Shown one piece after another: positions 17,866 through 22,499 of a stretch of DNA of 64,000 nt. Origin of the DNA: Octopus vulgaris. Its lineage: Eukaryota. Under the pieces are notes generated by a model, which searched no databases, was not told where the DNA came from, and was given only the letters and a program-made list of their open reading frames with translations. Every line of letters begins with the position of its first letter. Within the stretch, counting starts at the first letter, position 1. The DNA is taken from NCBI GenBank assembly GCA_951406725.2, contig OX597830.1, positions 32,488,001 through 32,552,000 on the forward strand, read 5' to 3'. The translations under genes were made by a program, and so were the position numbers.

Positions 17866-18043
17866 ATCTATCTATCTATCAATCTATCATATATATATAT
17901 ATATATATATATATATATATATATATATATATATATATATATACACACACACACACATATATATATATATATATATATATATATATATATATATATATAT
18001 ATATATATATATATATATATATATATATTTATTATATAGAAGG

Positions 18044-18094
18044 AGCTTCTACAGGACTAGTACTGTTTCATTCAAGAGAAATCTTCAGGAAGCT
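18044..18094 (-). ncRNA. Type-I hammerhead ribozyme (mirror of 21391-21441)
   Basis: Reverse complement of the 21391-21441 motif. Confidence 0.8.
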
Positions 18095-21000
18095 ATTTAA
18101 CAAGAATTGTATTAGCATTTATACATTTAGGCAGGTTTAAAGGAGTGGTGGTGGGGGACTTTTTGGGGGTAGGCATAGCGCAAAATATCATACTTGGGGG
18201 AGTGGTCAAGGAGTCATTGGTAAGTTAGATGAAAGAATAGATAAATAAAAAAAAAAAATAAAAAAATAAATAAAAAAAATAAAAAAATAAAAAATAAAAA
18301 AATAAAAAAATAAAATAAAAAAATAAAAAAATAAAAAAAATAAAAAATATAAAAAATATATATAAAAAAAATATATATATAAAATATATATATAAAAAAA
18401 TATATATATAAAAAAAGGGGGATAGAGTTATAGGTAAATAAGGAGATTCTCACTTATACCTATACACACATGTATACGTATCTACACACACATACATACA
18501 TACACATATATATACACACACATATATATACATATATATATATATATATATATATATATACATATACATATATACACACATACATACATATCTACATACT
18601 CACATACATACACCCGCCCACATATACAAATTTATACACATGCACATGCCTATACCTGTCTACACATACACACACGTATATATGCATACACTCACTCCCA
18701 TGCATGCACGCATACACACATGTATATATATATATATATATATATATACCCACGACCACACATACATATATACACATAAAAATATATATTCATACGCACA
18801 TACACTCATGCACACACAACACACCTAGTTCCCTATATACACATATTTACACCTATATATACATACACCCACATACACCTATGTACACATATATATATAT
18901 AAACATATACACGCATACATATATATACATGTGTGCACATACATACATACACACATATATACATACACATACACATACACATGTGTACCTATACATACCT
19001 ACACATACACACATACATACATACAAATATACATATACATATATATATATACAATCCAATACAGGCCCATTCCCTAATTTTAATTTTATTATCTTCATTT
19101 ATTACTTTTGTTATCTTTGATCGCTAGGGCTAAGAATCCTGGCAATGGCTGCATGTCCATTTGTCTGTCTACTAGAAGGCAAGTACTCATTCCCGCACGC
19201 ACACTCATTAGCACGTACATTCACCCATTCGTACACTCATACACATACACGTACGCACGCGTTATATTCATACATACAAACATCTACATACGTTCACGTA
19301 TATACACATACGTACTCGTACCTACAGATTCGTGTCTACACTTTAGGAGGCTAGTCTATACATATACACCAATAAATATACATATATATATATATATATA
19401 CCCGCATATACATACACACACACACATATATACTCCTACATACAGATACATACCTATATATATATATATATATATATATATATATATATATATATATATA
19501 CATACATACACATACACACATACATATACACACACATACATACACATATATATACATACACAAACATATATACACACACATATATATACATACACACATA
19601 CACACATACATACGTATACATACATACATACATCCATACATCCATACTTACATGCATTTATACGCATACACACACCCATCTATATATATGTATATATATA
19701 TATATATATATATACACACTCACACATACATATACAAATCTACGCACACACATACATACATACACGTATACGCATACACGCACATACACATATACATGCG
19801 TACCCATACACGTGCACACACGCACGCGCATCCATATATATACACACACACACATATATATACACGTGTGCAAGCATACATACATACTCATACGCGCACA
19901 CATACTTACAAATACATATATGCACACACTTACACACATATATATACATACACATATACATGCATACATACATATATGCATACATACACACACGCATCAT
20001 ATATATATATATATATATATATATATACATGTATATATACATATATAGATATACGTACACATACATACACATACACATACATACACACACATACACACAC
20101 ACATATATATATATATATATATATATACACATATACACATACATATATACACATATACATACATATACATACACACACACATACATATATACATATACAC
20201 TGATACACATACCCATACATACACATGCATATACTTATATCACTACATACTCACATATATAAACATATATACATATACACACATACATATATACATGTAC
20301 ATACACATACGTATGCATATATATATATATACATATATATACACATATATATATATATATATATACACACACACACACACATACATATACACATATACAT
20401 GTATACATACGCAAAAATGATACACATATATACACATACACACACACAGACAGATGCATATACATACATATATATATATAAACTACATATCTATATAAAT
20501 ACATACATAATACACATATACACACACATATATATATACATTCATGCATATACATATACAAGTATACATACACATACATACACACACACGCGCACACATA
20601 CATATACACACACACATATACAAATACATACATACACACATACACACACACATATATATATATATATATATATATATACATACATGTACACATATACATA
20701 TGTATATATATATCAACAAGGGAGGGTAAAGTTAATTAGTTATTAATCAATTTCATCAAGTGTTCAGTCTGTAAAGGGACCATTATTATTTTGAGTAAAC
20801 AATGTTAGAGGGAAAAAAATTCTCTAAGTAGTGGAAGAGGCTAAAAAACTTTATTGGCTGCTATTTCTAGAAAGTTTAGTATGTGGCAAAGTAATTTATT
20901 TTATTTTCCTAAGCCCTAATTATATAATATTTTATACATACATACACATACATAAGCACATACATTTACACATACATATGCATATACATATATACACATA

Positions 21001-21390
21001 TACATACAAACACATATACACATATACACACACACACACACATATATATATATTTTTTTTATATATATATTTTATATATATATTTTTTTTATATATATTT
21101 TTTATATTTTTTATTTTTTTTATTTTTTTATTTATTTTATTTTTTTTAATTTTTTTTATTTTTTTATTTTATTTTTTTTTTTTATTTTTTATTTTTTTTT
21201 TTTATTTATTTTTTATTTATTTGTTTTTTTTTTTTTTTATTTATCTATTCTTTCATCTAACTTACCAATGACTCCTTGACCACTCCCCCAAGTATGATAT
21301 TTTGCGCTATGCCTACCCCCAAAAAGTCCCCCACCACCACTCCTTTAAACCTGCCTAAATGTATAAATGCGAATACAATTCTTGTTAAAT

Positions 21391-21441
21391 AGCTTCCTGA
21401 AGATTTCTCTTGAATGAAACAGTACTAGTCCTGTAGAAGCT
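21391..21441 (+). ncRNA. Type-I hammerhead ribozyme, predicted GUA cleavage after 21435
   Basis: agcttc-CTGAAGA-tttc tctt gaat-GAAA-cag tactagtc ctg-TA-gaagct; 6-bp stem I, 3-bp stem II, 4-bp stem III, intact core. Confidence 0.82.
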
Positions 21442-22499
21442 CCTTCTATATAATAAATTAATTTTACTCTGCTATGTATTGAGTACCTTACTTACTGTGG
21501 TTAACCCCGAATCAACCCGGGACCTACATATATATATATATATATATATATATATATATATATATATATATATATATATATACATACACATACATATATA
21601 TATGAATATATATAATATATTTATAAATATATATATATACATGTATTTGAGTGCAGAAATATATAAGTATAGACGTGTATAAAATTATGCAAATGTATGT
21701 AAATGAGAGTGCAAGTATAAGAAGAAGATGAATATATTCATACAAGAGTATGTATATACATTACAATCTGTGTATATATATATATATGTGTGTGTATATG
21801 TATTTGTGTCCTCGCGTTGGTTTTTATGTGAATGGTTGTCATTATTTGTGAATGAGTGTATAAACGTGAGCTGTAATAGGGATATATAATGTGTCTCTAT
21901 GTGTGTATGTGTTTAGCATGTATAGCTAGGATGCATGGATGGAAGGCTGGAGGCAGTGGGGAGCAATTAATTCCGAGCTTAAAATATAATTCATAACGAA
22001 AGGCTTCCTGTTAACGATAGCATGTTCTACATGATGTCAATCATTCTAAGTGACTAATAAGTATATATATATATATATATATATATATACACACATATAT
22101 GCATGTGTGTGTGTATACACACACACACACATATATACACACACATATATATTCACGCATATATATGTATATCTAAATCTATCTATCTATCTTTTAAATC
22201 TCTCTCTCTCTCTCTCTCTCTCTCTATATATATATATATATATATATATATATATATATGTATGTATGTATATATATGTATATATATATATATATATGTA
22301 TGTATGTATATATATGTATATATATATATGTATGTATGTATATATATATATATATATATATATATATATATATATGTATGTATGTATGTATATATATATA
22401 TATATATATATATATCTGTGTGTCAACCCTTGTGTGTTGGCCTGTGTGTGCGTTTATATGTAGGGAACACTTTTCTTGAGATGTTATACTTAAATAGGT

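Follow-up and report, generated by a model that had tools for sequence, protein, structure and literature searches.

Are inverted, ribozyme-bearing repeats around kilobases of simple repeat a mobile unit of their own, an insertion that has enclosed host DNA, or part of something larger? The question is raised by a locus in a stretch of 64,000 nucleotides of Octopus vulgaris DNA (assembly GCA_951406725.2, contig OX597830.1, positions 32,488,001–32,552,000, forward strand), referred to here at its full length as 'the window'. Positions 18027–21531 consist of two 5′-truncated 3′ ends of one retroelement, placed head to head inside (TA)n. Judged from its sequence, the locus is almost certainly a truncated copy of a young, protein-coding Penelope-like element (PLE) of the Hydra clade.

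Structure of the locus

The two inverted arms (18027 to about 18411 on the minus strand, 21043–21458 on the plus strand) are identical at 216 of 217 bases in their unique parts (18027–18243 versus 21242–21458). An A/T tract is also present in both, with about 32 bases of indels between the copies. The near-identity of the arms, claimed in an earlier reading of the bare sequence (the original prediction), is thereby borne out, and so is the lack of a coding core, as the locus holds only low-complexity frames. The same reading took the arms to bracket a separate interior of 2.6 kb. This had to be given up: the minus strand of 18027–21040, microsatellites included, aligns end to end with the 3′ 3 kb of eight of eight copies on other contigs, with 98.6–99.6% identity over aligned bases (two of the eight belong to a short subtype of the 3′ untranslated region (UTR) and lack about 430 bp). 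Since 18027–21040 is one continuous 3′ end, the locus is a long tailless arm joined to a short tailed arm. The long arm is truncated about 0.3 kb downstream of the stop codon of the open reading frame (ORF). A tail of 73 nt (21459–21531) continues the right arm and is missing from the left one; its last four to five bases are common with the (TA)n target, into which both outer ends of the locus continue. The hammerheads lie in pseudo-long terminal repeats (pLTRs). The parts of the locus are as follows.

17960–18026, left (TA)n target array, read from the sequence; within a longer TA/CA run from about 17885
18027–21044, minus strand, long tailless arm of 3.0 kb with most of the 3′ UTR and the pLTR; from alignment to eight of eight copies, 3′ end at the +12 site (see below)
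18027–18243, minus strand, pLTR core of the long arm; 216 of 217 bases as in 21242–21458
18044–18094, minus strand, type I hammerhead motif from a descriptor scan; predicted cut after 18050
18244–18417, minus strand, degenerate T-rich tract; marker-to-marker length 115–301 nt across copies
18418–20932, minus strand, microsatellite-like 3′ UTR body of the long subtype, containing a CG-rich patch
18418–18462, 19053–19190, 19325–19375 and 20714–20932, minus strand, fixed islands in the UTR body
21043–21044, head-to-head junction of the 5′-truncated arms, placed by eye; TA overlap of 2 nt (2–3 by repeat register)
21043–21531, plus strand, short tailed arm of about 489 bp with T-rich tract, pLTR and tail
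21362–21369, plus strand, TATA-like motif, a candidate promoter, 29 nt upstream of the 5′ edge of the hammerhead
21391–21441, plus strand, type I hammerhead motif from the descriptor scan; predicted cut after 21435
21459–21531, plus strand, PLE tail of 73 nt, the start of the 5′ UTR leading to the ORF in full-length copies
21532–21581, right (TA)n target array, read from the sequence

The CG enrichment predicted for about 19190–19900 was confirmed. This patch has 28 CG dinucleotides and an observed/expected ratio of 2.39; the ratio is 0.55 for the remaining interior and 0.36 for the window.

The parent element

Full-length copies elsewhere in the genome have the order pLTR, tail, ORF (713 aa), 3′ UTR, pLTR. 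The unit of copy L087 is 5,510 bp long; its ATG follows the hammerhead cut site by 137 nt, and the next cut site lies 3,234 nt beyond the stop codon. In copy L083 the frame is open for 718 codons, 713 of them from the Met. Complete units were found at L081, L087, L094, L095, L110 and L111, tandem copies at L085, L100, L103 and L116.

The ORF protein, P0002, shows by eye the motifs RWR, DKT and YRDD, a CxCx5C linker, CxxC and CxH, and no CCHH. The features given for the Hydra clade are RW(K/R), DKT replacing DKG, a CxCx5C linker, CxxC plus CxH near the end of the endonuclease (EN), and no CCHH (PMC8557442; here and below, published elements are described from the accessible portions of the papers cited). 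The Hydra-clade preference for (TA)n is found too, since by eye 130 of the 132 ends of the element pass into such an array, and the general features of EN-containing PLEs are present: reverse transcriptase (RT) and GIY-YIG in a single ORF, direct or inverted pLTRs, a tail at one end and a hammerhead in the pLTR. The unit length of 5,510 bp departs from the tendency of the clade to be generally short (<3 kb). Relatives of P0002 of about 700 aa are plentiful, with 37–52% identity among the 120 matches listed. When 39 relatives with 38–43% identity were aligned, a Pfam match to GIY-YIG was obtained for two and one to RVT_1 for one of the 40 alignment members. The assignment to the Hydra clade was made by motifs, and the published Hydra proteins were compared by eye. 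Two search results speak against the identification of the element: P0002 itself gave no RT or GIY-YIG match in Pfam, only weak unrelated ones, and its profile found no relevant solved relative in the PDB.

Going by the RT/GIY-YIG ORF of its full-length copies, the element is an autonomous Hydra-clade PLE. The original prediction was right in calling it Penelope-type and young, and wrong in considering it non-autonomous, as full-length copies bear this ORF upstream of the very body seen here.

The ORF is broken by a frameshift at one homopolymer (position 4724 of the L087 locus) in 39 of 45 assembled copies. Contigs of four of four runs, from four studies, have one more base at this site, and in them the two other indels of L087 are filled. 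Because the breaks are absent from these contigs, they are likely to be assembly errors; a programmed frameshift was dropped on the same ground. A search of sequencing runs listed no RNA run with the sequence. The ORF does occur in contigs of runs guessed to be RNA, which says nothing on its expression or level.

The genome search yielded 916 first-look candidates for the arm, and 937 and 986 for two islands that had been predicted to be unique; identity was checked for the best 40 of each and is 99–100%, with 100% for both islands. The number of first-look candidates falls from about 950 for the 3′ markers to 210 for the RT and 84 for the ORF start, the usual 5′ truncation. For closer analysis, two sets of 39 were fetched: loci anchored on the tailed arm, and stretches anchored on coding sequence. 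Another 20 loci were picked from a protein search.

A 3′ UTR filled with microsatellites

In the 3′ UTR of L087, 2,000 of the 3,234 nt lie in alternating purine–pyrimidine runs of at least 12 (ORF: 16 of 2,139 nt), and Tandem Repeats Finder covers 1,807 of the 3,234 nt. About 60% of the 3.2-kb UTR is simple repeat, mostly TA/TG. The islands between these repeats travel with the arms: other copies have the fixed order ORF, islands i2, i1b, i1 and i0, T-rich tract, pLTR, tail. The islands thus stand upstream of the hammerhead, in an orientation opposite to that implied by an arm–interior–arm arrangement. The original prediction was correct that the microsatellite-like body moves together with the arms and that low-complexity DNA is spread in this way.

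Sister copies (83–97% identity in the EN region) have long, repeat-rich UTRs too, with 1.0–4.5 kb to the first hammerhead in those family copies in which the pattern matched, at most 11 of the 20 loci. Their islands, where detected, are in unchanged order and are more diverged than the ORF. As the sister copies keep such UTRs with the islands in order, the simple-repeat UTR is, by sequence comparison, an inherited part of the lineage.

This bears on the suggestion that a pLTR insertion captured or inverted 2.6 kb of host DNA. In PLEs of Adineta vaga, host DNA has been described between the ORF and the pLTR, as has its capture between two pLTRs (PMC3846280); the distant origin of the octopus UTR may well be host microsatellite DNA. 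At this locus, however, the interior is the element's own 3′ UTR. With more than 900 candidate copies of the islands, identities of up to 100% and an order kept in sister subfamilies, we regard the probability of host capture as negligible.

Two young UTR subtypes, about 430 bp apart between TA repeats, were distinguished (38 short and 65 long of 103 measured). The difference maps to the equivalent of 18462–19053 in the window. An intron was rejected as its explanation, since both break points are in TA repeats and the short form retains a donor-like site.

One locus, L059 (C1:15674800–15684799), carries an unrelated Penelope-like ORF of about 3.1 kb (P0001; positions 4952–7648 of the locus, minus strand, and beyond) at the junction of the arms. 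P0001 has an RVT_1 match and a DKG motif and adjoins a (TA)n run of the UTR of the main family, a layout that fits the UTR as a target for other (TA)n-seeking elements. As a separate observation, copies L095, L100, L117, L121, L127 and L131 adjoin or lie inside other copies of the family, including inside UTR microsatellites.

From about 900 or more island-bearing loci with a mean of 4.0 kb in a sample biased to long copies, the subfamily would add a few Mb to the genome, roughly 0.1% of 2.8 Gb. With this small share, it does not alone explain the microsatellite load of the host. In the accessible literature we found no PLE with kilobases of compound microsatellite in its 3′ UTR; Repbase, Dfam or the library of PMC13282606 may hold the family. 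A 3.2-kb UTR with about 60% simple repeat is apparently new for a PLE.

Hammerhead motifs

The descriptor scan found two type I hammerhead motifs in the window, one in each arm. Stem I has 6 bp, stem III has 4 bp and an 8-nt loop holding a palindrome, and the cleavage site is GUA. These parts, and the cut after 21435, are as originally predicted, but 'well-formed' was an overstatement: stem II is short (3 bp) and has a U–U pair adjoining the core, the Rfam scan gave no hammerhead match at the gathering score, and the motif folds no better than shuffled sequences (z 0.28). The hammerhead fold is 1.2 kcal/mol above the minimum. A dimer through loop III is predicted, which does not count as evidence of activity. 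Metazoan PLE hammerheads cleave poorly as monomers (PMC4209133). The extra U on each side of stem II is shared with many Hydra hammerheads (PMC8557442, supplement S2). It is true that each strand has one sense hammerhead at its far end, as had been pointed out, but this geometry is a consequence of the head-to-head layout.

The 43-nt core of the motif at 21391–21441 has 1,735 exact copies in the genome and a one-base variant has 1,794 (3,529 in total); reversed cores, used as controls, gave no exact match. Recurrent differences between subfamilies affect core position 7, loop II and loop III, and none is compensatory.

Inverted pairs across copies

An inverted pLTR occurs within about 8.7 kb upstream in 33 of the 39 tail-anchored loci, so the arrangement of the window is the rule in this family. 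Among 146 hammerhead-bearing ends, 14 read through toward the ORF side and 132 stop. The stops fall on two sites, counted from the anchor: 64 ends are at +6 to +16 (44 exactly at +12) and 67 at +82 to +89 (62 exactly at +85). The sites are 23 and 96 nt past the hammerhead cut site, hence 73 nt apart. Of 51 head-to-head pairs, 49 have one tailed and one tailless end, two are tailless twice and none is tailed twice. Pairs not selected for the tail gave a similar picture, with one end of each kind in 16 of 18.

Palindromes are a known long-read artefact, which raises the question whether the locus is a fold-back chimera of the assembly. Contigs placed on the locus covered neither the junction nor the right flank, and the absence of a junction-spanning read would be in line with this. 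A chimera is nevertheless highly improbable given that the arms of 49 of 51 pairs differ by rule (one tail, fixed ends) and that the flanks differ on the two sides; moreover, short-read contigs show both end types entering (TA)n, and the junction of a mini-palindrome as loose ends.

The two arms of a pair share variants. The UTR subtype agrees between the arms in all 33 pairs, against a mean of 16.9 after shuffling (0 of 10,000 shuffles); the pLTR haplotype agrees in 45 of 46 (shuffle mean 35.2; 0 of 5,000) and the i2 haplotype in 12 of 12 (shuffle mean 6.2). Arm lengths are correlated as well (Spearman 0.56), and the 5′ ends of the arms are no more than 100 nt apart in nine of 32 loci (shuffle mean 2.0; 0 of 20,000). 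The tailless arm is longer by more than 100 nt in eight of 32 loci, that of the window among them. For these symmetry tests L059, with a different element at its junction, was omitted, and the arm lengths of the window were set by hand. Automated junction overlaps are unreliable in simple repeats (56 nt for the window locus, compared with 2–3 by eye).

Much shorter pairs occur as well. The first 100 exact hammerhead hits on contig C1 form 65 clusters. Ten of these are palindromes in which less than 80 bp separate the two hammerheads, and six of nine seemingly single hits that were checked are mini-palindromes too, so that at least 16 of the 65 clusters are of this kind. The mini-palindromes (L139–L151, L153, L154, L157 and L158) are about 200 bp long, lie in (TA)n, have one tailed and one tailless end, and stop at the 5′ edge of the hammerhead. 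Each of the 11 short loci that were read carries a single tail, and the position of the junction shifts from one to the next around the AGCT in the 5′ strand of stem I. We found no PLE mini-palindromes and no such pair statistics in the accessible literature.

Could the arms and the body form a separate non-autonomous element, moving as one unit? The locus has no ORF and its body moves with the arms, as this would require. We consider it very unlikely, since ORF-bearing copies have this body as their 3′ UTR; further, junction position and arm lengths differ in all 33 loci measured, and the arm–body–arm layout has no second copy among them. A MITE-like (miniature inverted-repeat transposable element) or non-autonomous PLE derivative was rejected as well: no fixed deleted structure is repeated, and the junctions of the mini-elements also vary.

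Of 30 copies holding the ORF start, four begin at the 5′ edge of the hammerhead (two without an inverted partner) and 21 reach further upstream; in none of the 30 is the 5′ end at the cut site. In other copies, 5′ ends are concentrated at positions equivalent to 21391–21394. This hot spot may be a transcription start site (given the TATA-like motif), the end of an intron (AG after pyrimidines) or a site of RT stalling. In Penelope of Drosophila virilis, the 5′ end of helix I is where an intron ends (PMC4209133).

At two loci, L044 and L110, the host flanks beyond (TA)n read alike outward on both sides, as if they were inverted copies.

A model of insertion

How tandem and inverted PLE insertions form has been named an unresolved question (PMC8557442). 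We hold it highly probable that the window locus is, as a whole, a truncated head-to-head insertion of a Hydra-clade PLE into (TA)n whose arms likely come from two RTs on one uncleaved RNA; the two-RT, one-RNA step taken by itself has about an even chance. In a (TA)n array, a dimeric RT–endonuclease would nick the two strands. Two RTs, primed from opposite target strands, would begin on an uncleaved RNA at two points, 96 and 23 nt downstream of the hammerhead cut site. Each would move toward the 5′ end of the RNA and stop, and the two cDNA ends would then be joined head to head at short homology. At the window locus, one RT would have ended within the T-rich tract, about 0.5 kb from its start, while the other ran 3 kb. 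The hammerhead would be uncut in the template, as both start points are 3′ of its cut site, and arms made from one RNA would have common variants and coupled stops. An insertion brings in as much as 3 kb of TA/TG-rich DNA, or 6 kb if both arms are counted, and with it new (TA)n arrays. For a Poseidon PLE, two tail-delimiting RT start sites, cutting of both strands and the use of uncleaved RNA were observed in vitro (PMC11167929).

Several points weigh against this explanation. Within (TA)n neither an empty site nor a target duplication can be made out, so that target priming is here a supposition, and no read spans the junction of the window locus. The arms of the window differ at one base and in tract length. 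Two pairs, L080 and L083, are tailless at both ends; the i1 haplotype is common to both arms in only 23 of 31 pairs (shuffle mean 5.1); and in 23 of 32 loci more than 100 nt separate the stops of the two arms. Common arm variants would also be expected if two RNAs came from a single dominant source copy, or if the arms had undergone conversion once inserted. The loci are the best-scoring matches to the subfamily of the window, and the sample therefore leans to young, long copies.

With an identical element, the inverted arm could instead arise by self-priming (fold-back) of one cDNA or antisense template, an endonuclease later trimming one tail. Self-priming has been proposed for A. vaga PLEs (PMC3846280) and endonuclease resolution of the tail in PMC8557442, and the shared haplotypes, the excess of near-symmetric junctions and the palindromic junctions of the mini-elements would all be explained. 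Yet none of the 51 pairs is tailed at both ends, asymmetric loci would require loops of up to 3.4 kb, and an extra trimming step is needed for the eight of 32 loci, including that of the window, in which the long arm lacks the tail of the short arm. Plain fold-back is excluded at the window locus, where the tail is on the shorter arm only and neither arm contains the other. We rate fold-back with trimming as possible, though rather doubtful.

Somewhat less probable still is the use of two separate RNAs, one for each protomer of the dimer, from one active source copy of the same element. On this account either arm may be the longer one, as is seen (eight versus 15 of 32), and the one-base difference between the arms of the window, as well as the two different loop variants in mini-element L150, would find a simple place. 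The model alone does not explain stops within 100 nt of each other in nine of 32 pairs, and both UTR subtypes are young yet unmixed in 33 pairs.

Returning to two RTs on one RNA, a wider proposal is offered only tentatively. The copies may record inverted PLE insertion by two RTs 73 nt apart on one uncut RNA, primed at opposite (TA)n nicks. Starts in the 5′ pLTR would run off the 5′ end of the RNA at the edge of the hammerhead and give the double-hammerhead palindromes of about 200 bp, while starts in the 3′ pLTR would give kilobase arms. With a UTR packed with (TA)n, the element would make its own target sites and seed compound microsatellites genome-wide.

Other repeats in the window

Several repeats, which we take to be similar to short interspersed elements (SINEs), lie to the left of the locus (17140–17830). 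A weak tRNA-like Rfam match (30.6 bits) at 11331–11402 on the minus strand is probably a SINE head. Decayed frames at 50187–50750 (minus) and 36242–36817 (plus) resemble a mariner-type transposase and a piece of an RTE-type long interspersed element (LINE), respectively.

Comparison with known elements

Inverted 5′-truncated copies and tails have been described for PLEs and the Hydra clade, as have hammerheads in the pLTR and (TA)n as a target (PMC8557442; PMC2377424), and recently active Penelope families have been reported in an octopus (PMC13282606). As in the Hydra clade (PMC8557442), the element has a single RT ORF with C-terminal GIY-YIG, a pLTR hammerhead, (TA)n targets, an inverted 5′-truncated copy and an optional tail. 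The unit is longer, with 5.5 kb compared with 1,080–3,045 bp for 27 listed Hydra families (supplement), and the tail has 73 nt compared with the 30–40 bp stated for PLEs. The listed families also differ from this element in its 3.2-kb UTR with about 60% simple repeat and in its thousands of near-identical copies. The octopus family Hydra-1_Obim of that supplement is 2,507 bp long, and its hammerhead and ORF differ by eye from those found here, clearly enough to make it a different family.

Penelope of D. virilis and of A. vaga (PMC2377424, PMC3846280) likewise occurs as partial tandems between inverted repeats that vary in size, with a tail on one arm, and has head-to-head junctions that are sometimes palindromic, although these families belong to another clade. 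Pen1_Av has a spacer of 0.9–1.5 kb before the 3′ pLTR (PMC3846280), which differs between copies (captured host DNA), whereas the UTR described here is fixed across subfamilies. Poseidon PAc of Anolis (PMC11167929) has two fixed end points that delimit the tail, an AT-rich target and a template uncut by the hammerhead, as proposed here; the two end points are in vitro results for Poseidon PAc and were deduced from copies in the octopus. The Poseidon PAc ORF begins inside the hammerhead, in contrast to 137 nt after the cut site here. No account of the formation of inverted pairs was found in the accessible part of that paper.

Snake CR1-L3 and Rex LINEs (PMC6050309) also spread simple repeats of their 3′ end. 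There, a terminal AATAG array has an effect on genome scale, whereas here kilobases of compound TA/TG repeat are internal to a PLE UTR. Non-LTR retrozymes (10.64898/2026.07.22.740005) share with our locus a type I hammerhead related to those of PLE pLTRs and non-coding copies. They are tandem direct repeats, however, while the locus has only two inverted motifs and the mini-elements are inverted truncation products, and a non-LTR retrozyme was therefore rejected.

The locus of the window is an ordinary product of a known kind of PLE family, and its value lies in the UTR and in the evidence on the insertion mechanism across copies. In a young family with marked subtypes, insertion models become testable from sequence; one tail per insertion, arms of a single source, coupled stops and a 5′ hot spot narrow these models. 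Homopolymer errors, likely in 39 of 45 copies, can make an intact family look dead, and kilobases annotated as simple repeat can be the inherited UTR of a transposon.

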